Positions 80-56,600 of a stretch of DNA of 64,000 bases are shown here, one piece after another; within the stretch, counting starts at the first letter, position 1; every line of letters starts with the position of its first letter. The translations under genes and the position numbers were made by a program. This DNA comes from Podarcis pityusensis (lineage: Eukaryota), in assembly GCA_964106645.2 (NCBI GenBank), contig OZ067039.1, one strand, 5' to 3'. The notes beneath the pieces were generated by a model, which had not been told where the DNA came from, searched no databases, and saw only the letters and a list, made by a program, of their open reading frames with translations.

Positions 80-534
80 TGTAATGGTTCTAGGGGTTGC
101 TCGTGCGTAAGCCGGTGCTTATCTCCCCGGCTGGGTGCAAACACCTGGCTGGGTTGCCTAAGTGAACCTTTTCTGTCCGGACAGCCACTCACCCGTGGCT
201 GACTCAATCGCTGGCAGAATCCGTCAGTGGGCGTTTCTTAAACTTCTTCCAGCAAAGAAGCTCTTTGACGCCTAGTCTCCTCCTACTCTCTCTGCGTGAA
301 AGCCTTCTGCGCAAGGAGGGCGTAGGCAGCGGAGGACCCCTACTCTCCCCGCTGGTCCCAGGCAAGGAGTCATGGGACCGCTTCGCCGCTTCCCCCATCT
401 GCCCCCCTTCTCCACTGGTGCTACGCTGATTCTCTTCCCCAGAAGATGGGCTGCTCCTCCCGATCCCTGGACACTCTCTGGAATCCCTCTGGCCTTTGCT
501 CTCTCCCTCCGGCACTGATGGCAGTTCCCTGACA
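80..534 (-). mobile_element. Solo LTR (Gypsy-like LTR retrotransposon), copy A
   Basis: TG..CA termini (minus strand TGTCAGG..TTACA); flanks tctcc/tcccc form a near-TSD; shares blocks GTTGCTCGTG.GTAA, GGCAGAATCC, CTGCGCAAG and ATGGCAGT..CCTGACA with 30255-30725. Confidence 0.75.
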
Positions 535-20559: not shown

Positions 20560-20926
20560 GGACGCTGGTGGCACTGTGGTCTAAACCACTGAGCCTAGGG
20601 CTTGCCGATCAGAAGGTCAGCGGTTCGAATCCCCGCGACGGGGTGAGCTCCCGTTGCTCGGTCCCAGCTCCTGCCAACCTAGCAATTAGAAAGCACATCA
20701 AAGTGCAAGTAGATAAATAGGTGGGAAGGTAAACTCCGGTGGGAAGGTAAACAGCATTTCCAGGCTTCCCTGGTTCACCAGAAGCGGCTTAGTCATGCTG
20801 GCCACATGACCTGGAAGCTGTACGCCGGCTCCCTCAGCCAGTAAAGCGAGATGAATGCCGCAACCCCAGAGTCGTTCACGACTGGACCTGATAGTCAGGG
20901 GTCCCTTTACCTTTACCTTTACCTTT
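20560..20926 (+). mobile_element. Sauria SINE, full length
   Basis: tRNA-like head with A box and B box GGTTCGAATCC; (ACCTTT)n tail; 14-bp TSD tatatggggtatct/tatatgggctatct. Confidence 0.92.
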
Positions 20927-30169: not shown

Positions 30170-30880
30170 TAACTTTTGTTTATTTATTTATTTCATTTCT
30201 ATACCACCTTTTTCTTCCAAGGAGCTCAAGATGGTGTACATGGGTGTGTGTCCCTGTCAGAATGCTAGGTGGTAGTTGCTCGTGAGTAACCAGGCAGGAC
30301 TCTGACCTGTCTTTTACAGGTTTTATTGTGCAAACTATATACAGTGAAGATACACAAGGTTCATGTCCGTCTTAGTCACTTAGGCAGAATCCAGGAGTTG
30401 CCCCTTCCGGCTTCTCCCCCAACATAAGAACTTAGACACCCCAAATCTCCACCTCCCCTCCTTGTGTTTCACCCCTCTGCGCAAGCGTGGCAACGGAAGT
30501 GGCGTGTGTGCCTCCTGGCCAGCCGGGCTAGGTGAGGCGCTTGGGCTCTCAACAGCATCTTCGAGCCCTCTCCTCACTTGGCTGGCCCCTTCCCTCTCTT
30601 CTCCACTGGAGGTGTGGCTTTTCCCCTTGCTGGAAGAGGAACTGCTCCTTAGAAGCATTGGAGGCTCCCTGTATCCCGACAGTGTCTCTGCCTCTCTCCC
30701 CTGTTCCAATGGCAGTCACCTGACACCCCCCCCCCCAAATTTTCATCCTCACAACAGCCCTGTGAGGTAGGTTAGGCTAAGAGATGGTGACTGGCCCAAG
30801 GTTACCCAGTACGCTTCTTGACTGAGTGGGCGAACCCTGGTCTCCCAGGTCATAGTCCAACCTGCTAACCATTATGTTAC
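30170..30880 (-). mobile_element. MIR/CORE-like tRNA-derived SINE split by the LTR (30170-30254 and 30726-30880)
   Basis: CCTCACAACAGCCCTGTGAGGTAGG..TGACTGGCCCAAGGTTACCCAG core; (TTTA)n tail on the left piece. Confidence 0.65.
30255..30725 (-). mobile_element. Solo LTR (Gypsy-like), copy B, inserted into an older SINE
   Basis: Perfect 6-bp inverted termini TGTCAG..CTGACA; minus-strand AATAAA near 30323-30328; flanks tccc/cccc; homologous to 80-534. Confidence 0.8.
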
Positions 30881-33535: not shown

Positions 33536-36500
33536 TGAACATTAACACAATTCCCAACTCCTTCTACCTTTCAGTATATTCTTCCCTCCCCCCCACTCTG
33601 CTGTATGGTTTTATTCTGCTAGCTGGGCTGGAGGAGGGGAATAATGCATCAATAACGTCTTCATTATCACTTTAATGCAAGGTTCTTTGGTAGCTACTGC
33701 TGAACAGGTACTTTTCGTTGTTGACCTGTCAGCTCAGCTTGCTAATTATTTCCTATTTGCATTTCGGGCAGAGTCCCTGACAACTGCTACTTGCCATCTG
33801 TCAGAGGAAACCCAGGATGGGTGGCATTCTGTTTGTTTTATCTCTAAGGTAGCGCGGATAATCTTTCCTTCATAAAAGGGCACTGTGTAGGGTGTTGTTC
33901 TAGCAAAAGTCATAAACAATTTAATAATGATATTAATACTGTTTGTGACGCAAATAGGGAGGCGAGGGGAGAAACCGAGATGCATTTATTTCAAAGCCGG
34001 AGAGGTCCTTGCCCAGCTTTCATCTCAGCACTGCAGCTAGTTGTGTGCACAACAGCACAAAGGATCTTTCCAATCACTCATTTTAAAGTACACCCAGATG
34101 TTACTCCAATATAAACACAATTGGCTCCATCAGTAGCTATCTAGCTATGTATGCAGTAAAATTACAGCTTTGGCTACCGGACAAGAAAACTCAATCAAAG
34201 CTGTTTACTGCTGGCAAAAGCCTGTAACCTCAAAATGCAATAACACTTAGGAAAGTGACTCCGCTGCATCTTTTCAACATAGTCTCCCATCCCCAGCCCA
34301 GGTATTTATATCAGGCAGGCCTATGATAAAAACCGCATGATAGCAGAACAGCATTGCTTTACAAATCTGGGCACTGATACTGTGCATCCAGCAAAATGAA
34401 TGAAAACTCAATACTCCGATCCTTAGGTCATGTCTGTGTCAGTGCATCCCACCACACCTTATCCCTGCATGGAATGCAGTTTAAAATATTTGGTTAGATC
34501 TGCTGTTTAGGGGCTATCAGATCACCACCCTGGACAGATTTCTGTTAGTAGCTCCACAAGTGGCAGTGTCCCATAGCACTGTCATGGCTCTTTTGCCCTC
34601 CTTAAGATCCTGCAAATATGAGGACCAAATCTGACATGTCAGACCTCTTCGTTTAACCCTAGGTCTGCCCCAGTCACAGGGATACGGGTCTGCCTTTTTA
34701 GAGGAAAGGGAGATGCTCAGGTGAGGGGAAAGTGAACTCTCTTTGCCCCAACCTCTTATATTCCCTTAGCATCGTCTCACCAGATGTTTTTCCTGGAGCT
34801 CAGCAGAGGAGAAAAGCACCTTAAGGGACCAGTGGGGCAGAGATAAAGCTGCACAGAGTGTGCATTTAAAACTGAACATAAAATTGTTTTTCCTCTTCCC
34901 TGAAATGCCCTCACACTCAATTGAGTACGTGTAGTATCCCGAAACGCTTCTCAACATCCTTCAGGAAGTGTCCCCTTGCGTTAATGCGATCATTCAAGCT
35001 GGAGCAACCATGGTTCTTAACAAATATATCTGAACTATGTAAACTGCTCAGTGTGGTGTCTTCAGCAATAAGGTCTTCAGAACAGCTCCTTATTGCTGTT
35101 TAACTGGCCATTAGCAGCTGGAATAGACTGATTTCTTATGGGTTATGGCTTAAATAATTACCTGACACTCGGAGCTATTAAAAAACAGTTAATGAATAGT
35201 GGGTGGATCCATGAGGAGACAGCAGAGTTACATACAGCTAGCTGGGGAATGTGTTATATTGGGTAGGAAATGGCACTTCAGATGTTGCTGCCTGGGGGAG
35301 GAGGGGGACAGAACAAATTAGATAGGGAGGGCTTTAATAAAATTGTTTGTTTTTTTTTCTTTAAAAGAACTGTTGACAGCTATTTAGCGACTGCAATGAG
35401 CGTTAATCAGTTAATTTTTATGTTACTAGCTTGCCGAAAGCTTGAGGCTCACTTTTTTGTTCTCTTTCTTTTTAATATATAATTAGAGGACATATATCAA
35501 AGGGGAAGATACTGTTAAAGGTCCAGTCTTTCCAGGGGCATTGCAAGCCCCCAAGAGTGTAGATTTATTCATGAACTTGTGACCCAGTCTGCGACCCAAA
35601 AATCACATTAGCTAAGGTAGTTCAAAAAGAACAGAACACTGTGGTAGAAACTCTGGTCTCACCACCACCCTCATAAACACACAATAATATAACATGAGTG
35701 TTTCAGAAGGGCAAATGTATGCTTCAGCACCATTAGTACATTTGTTGCTCTGCTTTATAGGCAAAATCTCAACCAGAATTATTTGGGGAGTGGGGGAGAG
35801 TATCTAAAGTCCATTTTCTTTCTACTGTTACTGCATTTTAGTACAAAACAAAAAGCAACCCACTCATTTATCAGAACTTCTCCATACCTTGCTCCTTTTA
35901 TACTAGGGTTGCACAGCCTGTGGCTCTCATCACCACTCACCATTAGCCTTGCTGACTGGGGTGGATGTTTGTTGTGGCCTCAGAACATACTATGGAGGGT
36001 CACAGGTTCCTCTTCCCTGTTTTGGCACATGCACTCAGCTCTACTCAAAGGGTTAAACATATTACTTAGTTTAACAGGAGATTACTTTCTATGTCAGCAA
36101 TGTTTGTGTCATATATAAATACCCTCACCTTGGGTATTTACCTCCAGGAAACCAGTAGAACTATGTTTACCACTTTGAGCTCCTTGGAGGAAAGCTGGTG
36201 TATAAATGTAATAAAGAAAGTATCCTCAATTTTTTTTGACAGTGGCAAAAAAAAAAAAAAGTCCTATTCACCATTCAGACATTACAAGTAAAATGTTTTT
36301 TTCTGACACATTTTTATTGAATTCCGTTTTCCTTGCCCTTCCCTGTGTCACAGTGAAAAAAGGATTCTGCAGTGTTGGACATGTGGGATAGGTTTAAATG
36401 GGTAGGAGAGGATATATTGATTGCAATTTATCCCACCAGGCCCCCATGCGTGTGGGTTAGCAGAGTTTGAAAATCCCATCTTTGGCACCCCAATTAAAAG

Positions 36501-39357: not shown

Positions 39358-39714
39358 GGGACGTGGGTGGCGCTGTGGGTTAAACCACAGAGCCTAGGAC
39401 TTGCTGATCGAAAGGTTGGCGGTTCGAATCCCCGCGGCGGGGTGAGCTCCCGTCGTTCGGTCCCAGCTCCTGCCCACCTAGCAGTTCGAAAGCACCTCTA
39501 AGTGCAAGTAGATAAATAGGGACCGCTTTCTAGCAGGAAGGTAAACGGCGTTTCCGTGTGCGGCGCTGGCTCGCCAGATGCAGCTTCGTCACGCTGGCCA
39601 CGAGACCCGGAAGTGTCTTCAGACGGCGCCGGCTCACGGCCTCTAGAGCGAGATAAGCGCGCAACCCTAGAGTCGGTCACGACTGGCCGTGATGGGCAGG
39701 GGTACCTTTACCTT
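39358..39714 (+). mobile_element. Sauria SINE, full length, CpG-rich variant subfamily
   Basis: GGGACG head, B box GGTTCGAATCC, ACCTTT tail; perfect 12-bp TSD taagcaaattaa at 39346-39357 and 39715-39726. Confidence 0.93.
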
Positions 39715-40296
39715 TAAGCAAATTAAAAGCACACTGCTAGGATAGCATAGACAGAAGGGTATCTTTTCTCATTAAATTTATTATTTCCTTTGTGATTAAT
39801 TTTTATAGTAGGAATCAGTTTCTAGATAAGGCCAGGGAATGCTTTGTTAATAATCTTTTCAAAGGAGTGGTCAATGTTTGTGAAGTTGCTCAGTGTAACA
39901 ATTGATGATGGCAGACCTTCATCTACTTTTATTTTGCCCTACTTTTCCCCTGCTGTGTCTAGTGCAGGCTGTGCTGCCACATGCAAGACAGTAAAAGGAA
40001 ATTTATTAGAGTCCTGCTTTCTGAAGTTCCACGCTGCCAGAACTCTTGGACTCTTGTAAATTTCTCTTTTATTAGCTATGCATACAAAAACAAACAGTGG
40101 CGGAACCAACTGTGATGCTACAGAAAGTAGAGGAGATGGGGGCAGAGTTGGCACTGCATAAACAACTGAGGAGATGGAAGACACAAAACAGATTGCCTAG
40201 TGAACATCTCTTGAGAAAGGAAAACACAGAGAAGCAGAAAGGAAAAGCTAGGAATGGGAAGCAAAGAGGATTTAATAGTGCATGGGAATAAATGTA

Positions 40297-40538
40297 CAGT
40301 GGTACCTCGGGTTAAGTACTTAATTCGTTCCAGAGGTCCGTTCTTAACCTGAAACTGTTCTTAACCTGAAGCACCACTTTAGCTAATGGGGCCTCCCGCT
40401 GCTGCCGCGCCGCCGGAGCACGATTTCTGTTCTCATCCTGAAGCAAAGTTCTTAACCTGAAGCACTATCTCTGGGTTAGCGGAGTCTGTAACCTGAAGCA
40501 TATGTAACCTGAAGCGTATGTAACCCGAGGTACCACTG
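40297..40538. mobile_element. Tc1/mariner (Tigger/pogo-like) MITE, copy 1
   Basis: Perfect 18-bp TIR CAGTGGTACCTCGGGTTA; TA TSD; internal TAACCTGAA repeats. Confidence 0.92.
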
Positions 40539-43500
40539 TACAAGGGCTAAGCTCTGACAGAGGGTATTTCAGGCATCATCCTTGTGACTGACTGCCCTAG
40601 TTGTGCCAGGTTCAGAGGTGAAACTGTGGAGGTTCAAATAAGCCATGAAAATATAAGATCCGTCCTGATCAGAGAGAGGAAGATGAAGAATCAAAGCATT
40701 TTGTAAAACATTGTATTCACACTTAATTTTGATTCTTTCTCCTATGATTATATGTGTGCTTACATTAAAATGTATTGCTTGCCTTTCTACCATAAACAGT
40801 ACTCAGCAGCACTCTTTTTTAAAAATGCATCAATGTATATGGTGCTTCAAAAGGTTCACAGGAAATTCAATTCCTGATCTCTACCATGTGAAGCTGGGGG
40901 ACTTTTATGCATTTTGTGAATAAATGCCACTGGGCCTTAGGAAGTGTTCTGTGTGTAAGAGATGAAGTGACCCAAAGAAATTGCTCTTCATGAAGGAATT
41001 TAATGCTTCACTTTAAAAAAAACCACACCTTTTTACCCCCTCAAAAATAAAAAAACCCCAGCTAGTGTTACGTTTCTTCCAACTCATTATTATTTCTGCA
41101 CCAGCTGCTGCTACAGTCTTAAAAACAGGTTTGAAACCAGCATCATGCCCCCAAAATGCTATCCAGATCTCTTCTTATCATGAGGATGGGGCACCTGAGG
41201 CTATCCAGATTTTGTTAGACTCAACCAGTCCAACAACATCTGGAGGACCACAAGCTCCTCATCCCTGTTTTATGATGTAATTCATGGTCAGAAACCTGTT
41301 TTCTCTGCTCTTTTACAAATATTTTAATTGATATTAAAAACTATAAGAGAACCCAAATTAACTTTGTCCATAAGATACAATTGCATCTAGGACAAAATTG
41401 TTCATAAAACCCACTATTGACACAATTTCAATTCAAAAGAACCAGGAACAAGAACAGGGCCAAGAAGAGGAATATCACAACACCTGAGTTGAGGCTAATA
41501 GTGCAAGTTCTTTAATAAAGTATTGGTTTTTGTGGAGCGGGTAAAGGGGCAGGATCCTGCATTAAACAGGAACAGTAAGTGACAGATCACAGGATGAGGC
41601 ATGGATTGAAAAGGGGGGAAAAACTTGTGCCAATCTGAAATATCTTTAGAATTGGACTAAAAGATTTTAAAAGTGGAATAGAGATTTCCTGAACCAGATA
41701 TAACCTTTATCCTAGATGACATGATTATGCATTGAGAAACTGTGTTGGACTTAAAAGATTGATCTTCAGCCATGTACATTCCCTTCCCCCTTTATTTTCT
41801 TCCTGTAACATAGGAAAATGATTCTCTTGCTTACATTTCTGATCTCTGTAATTTTAGGATGTTGAAGCTGTGTTTTTAGCAACAAAGACAAACACAGCAG
41901 AACAATCTTCCACTGAAAGCCACTATCCTAAGTTCCCCCGAGACTCAGTGAATTCAAAACAATGCAGCTGTAAAAATTAATTTATCTTAATCAACTTCAG
42001 CAAAGCTTCATAATCTTTCAGTTACTTGATAGAGAAGTGCAGCTTGTTTATGGTGTGTGTGTAGTTTTAGCAATGCTGGTGAAAGTAGTTACATGGCCAA
42101 TAAAAAGCATTTTTCTCTTAGACATATAAATTAAGAAACTGAAAGACATTCTAACACATATCTTGCCAGAGGCAGCTGTTTCCCTTGTAAAGAGATTTCA
42201 GTCTGATGTTCACTTCAAACCATAATAAATCGAAAGGTGTGTGTTAAAATATAGATCACATAAAATATATAGTGCATAAATCACATTTCTATACTTGAGT
42301 CTTGGGTATTTATTCTTACCGTTTTTTTCTAAAAACTTTTCCACCTCTAAAACGGGACCTTCCAGAATTTCTTGAGATAATACTAACATTTTGTATGGGT
42401 TTGCAGTCCAAACCATGTAGGTCTGACAGGAAAGTGCATCACTGTTAGAGCAGTCATGATACGTTTATGCAGATAAGATGGTATTGTCTTGCACCAGCTT
42501 CCTTCTCTGTCATCCACTTTCTTATTGCTTCCTCCACCAGTTTTATGGTGGGATTAGGAGCTGTCTGAGTATATTTCAGTGTGTGTATTATAAGACCAAG
42601 CAAGCAATGTATAGAGAACTTCACCTAGGGAATCATCAAAAAGAGCATACAGGATATATTGACAGTGTGAAGACTGCTTTCTAGGGTGTTTACAGATAAG
42701 ACAAGCATTTTACTGTTTAAACCTTCTTCCCTAACACCTGCTATTCCCGTTACAGTGCCGTCCAATTGCTAGACCCATCTGGTGTTTTTTTCATGCCATA
42801 AACCTCCCATCATCCTCTGTTGGTTCACCTCAATTGTCCCACCTTTCACAACTAGTCCGCATTTCTTTTAACCCGTTTTTATACCACACCATTCCCAGTC
42901 TCTGTAGTCCATTTTCACCACCAGGTTTTGATTCCAAGCAGTCCATAGTATTTAGTTTAGAGGCTATCTTTGCTTTATTGCCCTGGGTTACAGCCTGAAA
43001 GTTCACGTAGAGGCCCCTTGTTGGCTATCTTCAGTTACAGATATTGCAGCTGGGGAAAGTGTCAAAGGAGTTGCAAAGTGTAATCATGGCTTGAGTTGGT
43101 ATAAATTTACAGATCTGAACCTAATGCAGAAGTGGACTATGTGAAAGGGAAGTTCACAGAGCAAAGTGGACTATCCACCCAAACCTAAAGTTAAGGAGGG
43201 CAGAATATCTGGCACAATTCCTACCAAAAGGCAGCTATTTAAGCAATGATTGATCTCCCCACAAAAAAACCAACAAAAGAAACATCATTGATAGGTTTAA
43301 AATAAGCATTCTTTGATCACTGAGTACCCACAGGAGTTAGAAACTACTGAAAGCCTCATCTATTAGCTGGAGGTGTCATACCTTATAGTATTTAAGGCTT
43401 GTTCCTGTGAGCAGATTGATTCTTGTGTTATTATTCAGAATTAGCTGTCCATGTAGGAACTACTTAATCCTGTGAGTGCTTAACCAAACTTTTAGCCTGA

Positions 43501-44174: not shown

Positions 44175-44526
44175 GATGCGGGTGGTGCTGTGGGTTAAAC
44201 CACAGAGCCTAGGACTTGCCAATCAGAAGGTAGGCGGTTCAAATCCCCGCGACAGGGTGAGCTCCTGTTGCTCAGTCCCAGCTCCTGCCAACCTAGCAGT
44301 TCGAAAGCATGTCAAAGTGCAAGTAGATAAATAGGTACCACTCTGGCGGGAAGGTAAACGGCGTTTCCGTGCACTGCTCTGGTTTGCCAGAAGCAGCTTA
44401 GTCATGCTGGCCACATGACCTGGAAGCTGTACGCTGGCTCCCTCGGCCAATAAAGCGAGATGAGTGCCGCAACCCCAGAGTCGGTCACGACTGGATCTAA
44501 TGGTCAGGGGTCCCTTTACCTTTTTT
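44175..44526 (+). mobile_element. Sauria SINE
   Basis: Closely similar to 20560-20926; B box GGTTCAAATCC; tail CCCTTTACCTTT. Confidence 0.9.
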
Positions 44527-53209: not shown

Positions 53210-53421
53210 TTTTGCAGACCTTGAATTTTCCGTAACTAGTAGCAAAGCAGCCAGCATTCTAGAAAACATGTGAATTTGCAACAATAATTTATTTATTTTA
53301 GTAGCTCTGTTTGAATACACTAATAAACTCTTGTGAAGATAGCAGTCATCATGGCACAACTAATCAATATAACCTACCTACAAGAATATTCAAATATTAT
53401 CTTGGAATTTCAATTCCTATA

Positions 53422-53646
53422 CAGTGGTACCTCAGGTTAAGTACTTAATTCGTACTGGAGCTTGTTCTTAACCTGAAACTGTTCTTAACCTGAAGCACCA
53501 CTTTAGCTAATGGGGCCTTCTGCTGCTGCTGCGCCCCCGGAGCACGATTTCTGTTCTCATCCTGAAGCAAAGTTCTTAACCTGAGGTACTATTTCTGGGT
53601 TAGCGGAGTCTGTAACCTGAAGCGTATGTAACCCAAGGTACCACTG
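53422..53646. mobile_element. Tc1/mariner (Tigger/pogo-like) MITE, copy 2
   Basis: Same TIR and TA TSD; near-identical to copy 1 but lacks one internal repeat unit. Confidence 0.92.
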
Positions 53647-56600
53647 TATTACATGCAAAATGCCATAATAAATACAAATGATGACTGGTATCCAGAGTGA
53701 GTCATGGGTACTTCTGCACAAGCATGGGTGGTTTTTTTTCTTTCTTTCAGCCTCTTTCCACATTTGGGCATAGCTGTCAACTTTTTCCTTTTCTTGCGAG
53801 GAATCCTATTCAGAATAAGGGAATATCCCTTTAAAAAAGGGAAACGTTGACAGCTATGCCTTTGGGAGAGCACTAAGGTTGAGGAGTTTCCACCAGAAAC
53901 AGTGAGATAAAAATACCATGTGGATGCATAGAACTTGTGCAATGCATTTATAGTTGTGAACCACTTAAAAGCCATTTTGGCATATAAGCAATATTTAAAC
54001 TAATAAGCAATTGGAGGAATCCAACATAGCACTGAGCAGGTCACTCCATCAGCATACGTATTTCTCAAGTTTCACCCTCACAAGTTGTGGTGATAGCCAT
54101 TTACTTGAATTTCAAAAAGGATTGACAAACTGATTTAAGAATTGGTCTATCAATGGTTAATGATAGCTGAAAGGTGCCTTGTGGACCTCCAGCTGTTGTT
54201 GGGCAACAGAGAGTCCTTATCCTGTCTGTGACTCCTTCCCTACTCACCCCTGTCTTTGCTGCAGAATTTGGATCGGAGCTTTTCGTTTGTGTTCCTTACA
54301 CAGAGTATATATAGGCCTGCATGTAATCAGACTTCAGATAAGGGAACTGTTGTTTATATAGGGTGATAATGGTAACCTTGAGAATTCAGTTGAACTATAT
54401 TATCCATGAGCCACATTTGGATTAGAAGTGTGTTAATATTGCATGTATGCTTGGGAAAGACTGTCCCCACCTGCTAATCTAGCGGTTGTTCCTGCCAAAA
54501 TAAGCTGTCAAGGAGAATATTGCAGCTACCATTTGATTCACATGGCAGCTTCCATGCCGGTTTTGTAATTAGCCAGGATGTTTTGGTGCAGGTGTTTTGT
54601 TTCAGTCGCCTACTCCAAATGGTTCACATTTGCCAGTTTAGATTTTTATTTTATTTTTTACAGGAGCTGAACTGATTGGAGCTGAGTTGTCTTTTCTGTT
54701 TCAGTTGTAGTTGAGATTTGACTGCTAGCCTCAGGTGATGCAGACTTCCACAAAAGAGCTAGTGAGATTGAGAGAGACTTGAGACTGAAGAAGCTCTTTC
54801 CGGCTTCCTGTTAAGTGAAGTGGAGCTTTGCCAGTGACAAATGCGGAAATGGGATCAAGCCACAAATATCAGTTCTGTGATTTAAGGAGAAATTGCAGCT
54901 TCACTAGAAAAAGCAATCTCAGCCATGAACACAATCATAAGGCGGCATCTTTGTTTACTGCTCTCTCTGATTGTAAGCCTTTAGGCAGAGCCTCTCCCCC
55001 ACCTCCAGCTGGGTATAGCACCTAATTATTTTACCTGTTTTAAAAATAGTTATAACAAGAATACATGGGCCTCATGCTTATCTCCCCATTTATACAAATC
55101 AAACCTCTATTTAAGTGAAATAGGAATAGGTTTTTGTTTTTGTTTTTCCGAGACTGATATGCAGATCATTCACATACATGCCACTCTGCTTTGGCAGTCA
55201 CTAGCTAGACCTGCGATAATCATTTTCACACATACTTTCTACTTACAATGTGTTTGGATAAATAATCACTCTTGCCCTGGGAGTTTAATTTTGGCACATC
55301 ATTCCGTAATCCCAGTGGTCACAGAGGCTATTAAGTAACCCCAAGAAATGCATGAGAGTTGCATTTCACTCTTTTGATCTGTAGCCCAGAAGCCTTTACT
55401 TCCAAAACAAATCTGTTTTCTTGGAAATGTGCTTAAAGTGGCCTTTCGTGCTGTCACTTGTGGTCACTTTGGAAGCTTGGCTTGTGAAAGATGAAGTTAT
55501 GGAAATTCTTGTAGCTTGTCCTATATATCACAGTGTAGGTTGTATATTCATGTGATACTCCAATCGGCAACTATATAAGGGCTATTAATGGCGCAGCTTA
55601 TGGCCCATGATAATCGGGTTTGCGGTTGCCACTAGCCAGGCCACCCTGCCAGCCCCTCCTCCACTTTGCAAGCAGGAAAAAAATGCATTATCTGTAGCTG
55701 CTGAAGGAGTAGTTAAATAGATGAAACTTTTCTCCTTCAAGGTTTCTGACTAATGTATTACCTCTCAGCACCCCTAAGAACAGCCAGGCAAGTTTCATGG
55801 AAGGAATAATATCTTACCTGGCCTCTCTCTATCTTTTAGCAAGTAGAAACCATAGCTGGGGTGAGGGGCGGGGGGGGAGAGATAACCACCTGGACCAGGA
55901 GCTGAGAGTTGGGGGAAGATAGCGCCCCCCCCCCCCCCGTTTTCATTTCTCTTGAAGCTGTTTATTTGTATGGTAAAGGAGGACTTGTGTTTATGCAGCC
56001 TGTAAATGTATCCCCCCCCCCAAATTGGGCAAATACTAATTTGCAGGAAGAGATTGGGAAAATATATCATGGGGCAATGGGAGACTTAACTCTGTTCCCC
56101 AGCCCAACTGTCTCAGTCTGTATCACACCTCCCTCCCCAGATGCTCTTTTCCAAAATTTAAAGAGATGGAAGAGCCAATTGTGCAACTTCCTTGTCTCAT
56201 CTAGTTTCGCCCCCAGATACACAAAAATACCAAATCGCCACTCTAAGGAGGATGGGCACAAAGTTTTGGTATTGACTTCTTCAGAGCTTTGGTCTAGGAA
56301 CTGGCACTTGCAGGTTTCTCTTTAACCCACTTCTGGTTTCCAGAGCAGGAAATGGTTGAGATGAGCAATAGACTGCCAGCAGCTTCTATGAAGTGGGCGC
56401 CCTGGTAGGAGGCAGTGGGCTGGAAGATGAAGTGCTATAGGCCATATGTTGCTCACTGTACTTCACATAATATATTTATGTCTGTACCAATTCCTGGGTG
56501 CAAGGGATGGAGGAGGTTTGCTTTTTTATGATTATGGGTCAATTAGACAAAAGATGAAATCACTTCCTCAGCAAGTAGTTACTCTGTGAGTTATAGCCCT

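Follow-up and report, generated by a model that had tools for sequence, protein, structure and literature searches.

How do two long terminal repeats (LTRs) that can hardly be aligned as DNA come to share a reading frame, and what protein, if any, does that frame encode? The question is raised by the window, the whole stretch of 64,000 nucleotides of Podarcis pityusensis contig OZ067039.1 (assembly GCA_964106645.2) that was analysed, in which two solo LTRs, one of family A and one of an older family B, lie on the minus strand. The original prediction, made from the letters alone, took the common frame for a separate accessory gene of a Gypsy-like element. In this study, we examine the frame within the window, its continuation in two-LTR copies, the selection that acts on it, and the function that it may have.

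The reading frame of the two solo LTRs

The features of the two LTRs are as follows.

80..534 (455 bp), minus strand (element sense): solo LTR of family A, a Tf1/Sushi-type chromovirus; TG...CA, with a polypurine tract preceding the end in junction copies
204..533, minus strand (LTR A): Pol integrase tail, last 109 codons plus stop; headless in the solo copy
333..533, minus strand: variable Ser/Gly/Glu-rich U3 part of tail A; predicted disordered, omega about 0.7
207..332, minus strand: ungapped 42-codon terminal block of A, with a basic run plus LLCW (260-249); omega 0.15-0.25 over the first 33 codons
218..228, minus strand: predicted 11-base self-primer of A and transcript 5' end (U3/R border); overlaps codons P-L-T-D-S
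30255..30725 (471 bp), minus strand: solo LTR of the older family B; TG...CA ends
30380..30724, minus strand: family B tail frame, 114 codons; stop at codon 3 in the window copy
30383..30502, minus strand: family B terminal block, with a basic run plus FLCW
30388..30398, minus strand: predicted 11-base self-primer of family B; fully complementary to the primer-binding site that follows a B 5' LTR (L054/L222)
30322..30327, minus strand: AATAAA polyadenylation-like signal 3' of the stop in LTR B; fits the minus-strand orientation

Imperfect 5-bp target duplications are present at both LTRs (TCTCC/TCCCC at LTR A, GTCCC/CCCCC at LTR B). The claim that the two are barely alignable as DNA was borne out by BLASTN, which returned short patches alone (best 34/48, E=0.007). 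Also confirmed was a common minus-strand frame from the second LTR base, which runs for 109 codons in LTR A (533-207, stop at 206-204) and for 114 in LTR B, where a stop occupies codon 3 and the frame ends 2 codons short of the usual DSASD stop of family B. As had been stated, the two frames have no start codon in common. Within an ungapped 40-codon block (A 332-213, B 30502-30383) the counts given beforehand were reproduced exactly, 20 of 40 residues being identical and 10 of these using different synonymous codons. When the same 48 substitutions were placed at random in the block, the mean number of identities was 13.4, and at least 20 were reached with P=0.002. By codon position, A and B differ at 17/12/19 sites (chi-square p=0.44); read in antisense, the block still gives 18 identities. 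By itself, the A/B pair is modest evidence for protein-level constraint.

Other repeats were seen in the window. LTR B seems to be nested in an older repeat (30200-30241 plus flank) that recurs in inverted form at 36163-36204. A SINE, presumably similar to the Sauria SINE, is present in three copies (20561-20915, 39360-39716 and 44175-44524), and a short MITE-like element with terminal inverted repeats in two (40295-40540 and 53420-53648). The SINE copies, and close matches in Podarcis muralis, indicate a lacertid lizard as the source.

Genome searches gave 2,172 first-look candidates for LTR A, of which the 40 that were scored proved 97-100% identical, and 862 for LTR B, the other copies being 86-90% identical to that of the window. 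Exact 5-bp duplications were found at 22 of 30 family A copies. A purine tract before the LTR start, common to two A loci, pointed to a junction with internal sequence; 144 LTR-internal junctions were counted for family A as against none in a reversed control. The junction search aimed at family B yielded two exact matches, the remainder being of A/D type.

Continuity of the frame with Pol

Upstream of the LTR, in the same frame, are read in order a GPY/F-type SH3 module, a chromodomain, an acidic linker and the polypurine tract, followed by about 110 LTR codons and the stop. One element (L091) carries a single ORF of 1,163 codons from reverse transcriptase (RT) to the 3' LTR stop, in which RVT_1, RNase H, rve, SH3_Tf2-1 and Chromo all score above the Pfam cut-off. 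The eight two-LTR elements that were fetched, seven of about 5.6 kb and one of 7.5 kb, consist of gag and pol; a 5-bp duplication is present in seven, and no env-sized ORF was found in the eight. In family D, a young sister family, a 1,374-codon frame is found in about 100 of the 150 matches listed and stops after some 300 bases of LTR. The frame is kept from chromodomain into LTR by 29 of 30 young D copies and by 15 of 25 usable A copies, and tails of 226-252 residues from different subfamilies share one stop, D/E-S-x-S-D. It is thus almost certain that the frame is the C-terminal tail of Pol, which continues past the polypurine tract and on into the 3' LTR.

A separate accessory gene, as originally proposed, is contradicted by this continuity with integrase, SH3 module and chromodomain over as many as 1,163 codons. 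Two parts of the proposal held: the frame does come in from the internal sequence that precedes the 3' LTR, where the SH3 module and chromodomain are read, and the element is Gypsy-like, with the Pfam order RT-RNase H-integrase (RT-RH-IN) and Ty3 Gag-Pol as its best PDB match (E=7e-136). The claim to a novel gene is lost, since an integrase/chromodomain tail is the very outcome that had been named beforehand as speaking against it. Podarcis muralis gypsy polyprotein models in UniRef (P0003-P0005) already run into the tail.

For the window copy of LTR B, we infer continuity with Pol from few copies and from homology. Old B-like internal copies were in frame from chromodomain to LTR in 3 of 14 cases, with no in-frame excess, and across the junction itself in 6 of 17. 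A programmed frameshift at the B junction, where 8 of the 17 copies are one base short, was considered and rejected; the frame is intact in young copies of A, D, E, G and X, and it is in G/T runs that the changes lie. Most of a D element is represented in four presumed-RNA contig sets, which are uninformative on start, strand and splicing.

The lineage is abundant, with 1,547 matches to a polypurine tract-LTR junction pattern, and recently active; the two LTRs of some D and X copies are 99.7-100% identical. Family D (L159-L188, L219) is a very young high-copy burst, most of its listed copies having an unbroken pol frame and LTRs that hardly differ. On the 38 Mb contig C19 there is a concentration of old copies that retain internal sequence, from several subfamilies, as would be expected of a non-recombining W chromosome. 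In subfamily B3 (L146-L151), which is possibly a non-autonomous group, little or nothing separates the integrase core from the end of the acidic linker, the SH3 module and chromodomain being absent, and the LTR block is kept.

Selection and self-priming in the LTR

From 140 distinct open blocks, eight multi-copy clusters were formed, all with a common stop position. Between seven of them, pN/pS over the first 33 block codons was 0.41, and net pN was lower than pS in 20 of 21 subfamily pairs. Under a codon model applied to 31 copies from 7 subfamilies, the block had an omega of 0.2 in the tail frame, four further frames gave 1.5-2.5, and the antisense frame, codon-aligned, gave 0.5; dropping the C and W codons by which copies had been picked left the block value at 0.2-0.25. 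For 16 natural copies open from chromodomain to stop, thinned from 54 open loci, the choice of open frames biases toward coding and lowers omega, and decay after insertion raises it; here the estimates were 0.15 for the chromodomain, 0.4 for the linker, 0.7 for the variable U3 (interval reaching 1.0) and 0.15-0.2 for the block, where the comparison with omega=1 gave 2dL=70. The second Leu of the block is encoded by TTA, CTT or CTC depending on subfamily. It is very likely that the terminal block is under protein-level purifying selection. This selection is real but local, being concentrated in the terminal block, and the Ser/Gly/Glu-rich half is close to neutral save for staying in frame. The purifying selection originally claimed thus stands for the terminal block (omega about 0.2), the Ser/Gly/Glu half having an omega of about 0.7.

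No tRNA primer site was found 3' of the 5' LTR. The 11 bases after the 5' LTR are the exact complement of 11 LTR bases, with compensatory changes among families A, B, D, E and X. Tf1 is described as priming with its first 11 bases (PMC7175516), and the Tf1/Sushi group as having this self-priming mechanism in common (PMC6317226). The predicted RNA start of family A is LTR base 307 (window 228), within the P-L-T-D-S codons, which makes the predicted U3 coding throughout and places the stop in R; these residues are also constrained as RNA because they belong to the self-primer. In each of the families A, B, D, E and X, the conserved W codon precedes the predicted start by exactly 23 bases, a fixed distance by which promoter spacing and protein motif are coupled, and promoter spacing also constrains the W-codon region. 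Since the predicted start is downstream of nearly all of the frame, a solo LTR would transcribe the last codons alone, and the solo LTRs of the window would not make the tail protein. Just 3' of the family A primer-binding site in L091, 8 bases are complementary to the first LTR bases; no such 8-base complement after the primer-binding site was seen in D.

A rival explanation is that DNA or RNA elements alone (a TATA-position element, an initiator and the self-primer) are conserved, the open frame being a by-product of a purine-rich U3. The fixed 23-base spacing would fit, as would the presence of TTA there in 5 of the 8 subfamilies, the overlap of the self-primer with the last codons, the near-neutral variable U3 and an antisense frame that is also almost stop-free. 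However, the block has three-base periodicity and an omega of 0.2 in the tail frame only, with the primer codons excluded; the excess of pS in 20 of 21 pairs and the common stop of the eight clusters also weigh against this explanation, and the U3 has a length divisible by three in 24 of 25 copies of A and in 12 of 17 of B (p=0.002). It is largely refuted by the frame-specific omega, and we regard it as very improbable. Only slightly better placed, and still improbable, is an accessory protein made from its own ORF, from a spliced RNA or by proteolytic release of the tail from Pol. In length the tail would suffice for a separate product, and its basic composition resembles that of Rev/Rex. Parts of the LTR frame are also included in two Podarcis muralis host gene models in UniRef, one for a phospholipid flippase that ends in the LTR terminal block (P0002) and one for a Gla-domain protein that contains the variable LTR part (P0177). 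Yet the frame is continuous with integrase, lacks a start codon common to A and B, and lies almost wholly upstream of the predicted transcript start, and the two host models use different, non-overlapping LTR parts in an artefact-like manner. They are likely gene-model artefacts from solo LTRs, the alternative being exonisation. Protease release of the tail is compatible with the sequence.

Relatives and possible function of the terminal block

At its end the tail has a basic run, which is conserved, followed by [LFI][LI][CN]W, and 14 of 42 block residues are K or R. AlphaFold predicts a disordered tail (mean pLDDT 52, pTM 0.28) with one low-confidence helix at VKELLCW (pLDDT about 50), the chromodomain being predicted with confidence. 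An ESM Atlas query with the tail gave no usable match and is uninformative on novelty or absence. Protein searches with the tail returned Podarcis models alone, to which a representative library added two motif-bearing proteins, P0028 and P0006, the latter a distant protein that keeps LLCWK at its end. At cage positions 1 and 3, the chromodomain of tail-bearing proteins has N/H and E instead of aromatics, whereas Y/F at position 3 is kept in 124 of 134 chromodomains examined. The post-chromodomain tail measures 206-252 residues from the YLVxW motif, and more than 400 in family X, as compared to 42-84 in full-length fungal, fish and other relatives. A tract-like signature, deduced from protein alone, is present in 35 of 134 relatives, and frames that enter the LTR to some extent may be widespread among them. 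In two other squamate chromoviruses, P0037 (Rhineura) and P0041 (Vipera), the aromatic cage is retained and the tail, which may be LTR-coded too, is shorter, with an acidic part followed by a basic one.

The elements have the TG...CA LTR pair, target duplication, polypurine tract and gag-then-RT-RH-IN order of Ty3/Gypsy, and the chromodomain after an SH3 module of chromoviruses (PF24626 and PF00385 above cut-off); exact 11-base complements in A, B, D, E and X agree with Tf1/Sushi self-priming, and the three aromatic cage residues of group I chromodomains are not retained as a set. In an RT tree built without named V-clade references (2 of 34 rows dropped as too short), the lizard elements come out as a single clade (100/100) whose sister is a Naja element (98/88), with a weak link to a fish element (83/83). 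They resemble the Tf1/Sushi chromoviruses of fungi and vertebrates (V-clade Sushi-ichi and Amn-ichi) in having gag and pol, RT-RH-IN, an SH3/GPY-F module, a chromodomain, no env ORF, a 5-bp duplication, and 11-base self-priming with no tRNA site (PMC6317226, PMC7175516). They differ from Tf1/Sushi relatives, in a comparison that covered sequences other than the named Sushi/Amn ones, by the longer tail, the loss of cage residues 1 and 3 and the predicted wholly coding U3.

As in plant CRM group A, the Pol ORF extends into the 3' LTR, where the CR motif of CRM elements, which targets centromeres, is encoded (PMC3059260). In contrast, CRM-A elements lack a chromodomain while the lizard elements keep a degenerate one upstream, Pfam detects no family at E<=1 in the two window frames, families A and D look dispersed and X is clustered at chromosome ends, and CRM elements are described as not self-priming (PMC6317226). 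Group II chromodomains (Reina, Tekay, Galadriel) were, in a 2013 account, known from plants only (PMC3605345), whereas the cage loss here is in a vertebrate lineage and is likely independent. The Ty1 and Ty3 integrases carry C-terminal basic nuclear localization signals (NLSs), and Ty5 is targeted via a six-residue integrase motif (PMC7175516). A short, presumably functional motif in a C-terminal integrase tail is what the lizard elements would have in common with these. The Ty1, Ty3 and Ty5 motifs are not known to be LTR-encoded. Retroviral nef, sag and bel2 also overlap U3, but as separate ORFs from spliced RNAs, whereas the lizard frame is part of Pol and continuous with integrase. A literature search, with Repbase and Dfam outside its scope, found no LTR-encoded integrase tail in reptiles; an earlier description is possible. 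The integrase tail is real, selected and LTR-encoded, the retrotransposon group itself being known, and the unusual traits are the predicted wholly coding U3, the loss of two of three cage residues, and the basic run with its hydrophobic-W end.

The reading that we favour, with a probability of roughly 0.75, is that of a Pol tail whose last 33 codons are selected and likely form a nuclear-import or chromatin motif. Genomic RNA would start at the 11-base primer, with the whole U3 acting as both promoter and coding sequence, and the 3' LTR copy alone would be translated. Pol would be made by a gag-pol frameshift, and the mature integrase would keep a long disordered tail ending in the basic run and a short hydrophobic helix. 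The acidic linker could serve to space this motif from the integrase core, and the motif could mediate nuclear import or bind DNA or nucleosomes, as do the basic C-terminal signals in Ty1 and Ty3. Composition and analogy make a role mainly in nuclear import or general DNA/nucleosome binding the most likely one, at a little better than even odds. The invariant hydrophobic-hydrophobic-x-W counts against an NLS alone, since an NLS would not need such a motif.

Unlikely, but deserving more weight than the accessory protein, is a dedicated integration-targeting motif that replaces the degenerate chromodomain, with tail variants setting the insertion sites of each family. Cage residues 1 and 3 are absent from all tail-bearing proteins, the block occupies the same position inside the 3' LTR as the CR motif (PMC3059260), and the Ty5 motif offers a precedent (PMC7175516). 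Family X (a sister family, e.g. L243-L247) has an LTR of 763-826 bp into which 212-232 codons are read, a more degenerate chromodomain, and a tail that ends in a basic run plus ILNWC. Among the matches listed, the best 150, 72 of 133 X matches are no further than 2 Mb from the end of a chromosome, where 5% would be expected; 22 of them fall in C2:0-1.7 Mb, and the GC content of the regions is about 55%. On the same basis, family A has 6 of 143 LTR matches and 5 of 58 junction matches so placed. Against targeting, cage loss and tail gain fall on one branch and so amount to a single event, not repeated co-evolution. Families A and D carry the LLCW block yet look dispersed (D is uniform along contig C1, KS p=0.91, n=106), and the clustering of X may reflect retention and is drawn from best-150 lists, with no satellite at 7 of the 8 end regions sampled. 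It is similarly doubtful that lacertid chromoviruses, having lost the methyl-lysine cage, evolved a new targeting motif inside their own promoter, as a vertebrate parallel to the CR motif.

The favoured reading, a selected Pol tail with a nuclear-import or chromatin motif, bears on both host annotation and element biology. Solo LTRs of these families leak into host gene models, which calls for caution, and the predicted U3 exemplifies a promoter region that doubles as coding sequence. The choice of insertion sites by LTR retrotransposons in vertebrates is largely unmapped, and the lineage has a discrete, selected motif of 33 codons that lends itself to study in isolation. Were the targeting explanation true, tail variants would explain the location of family X at chromosome ends as opposed to the even spread of families A and D.
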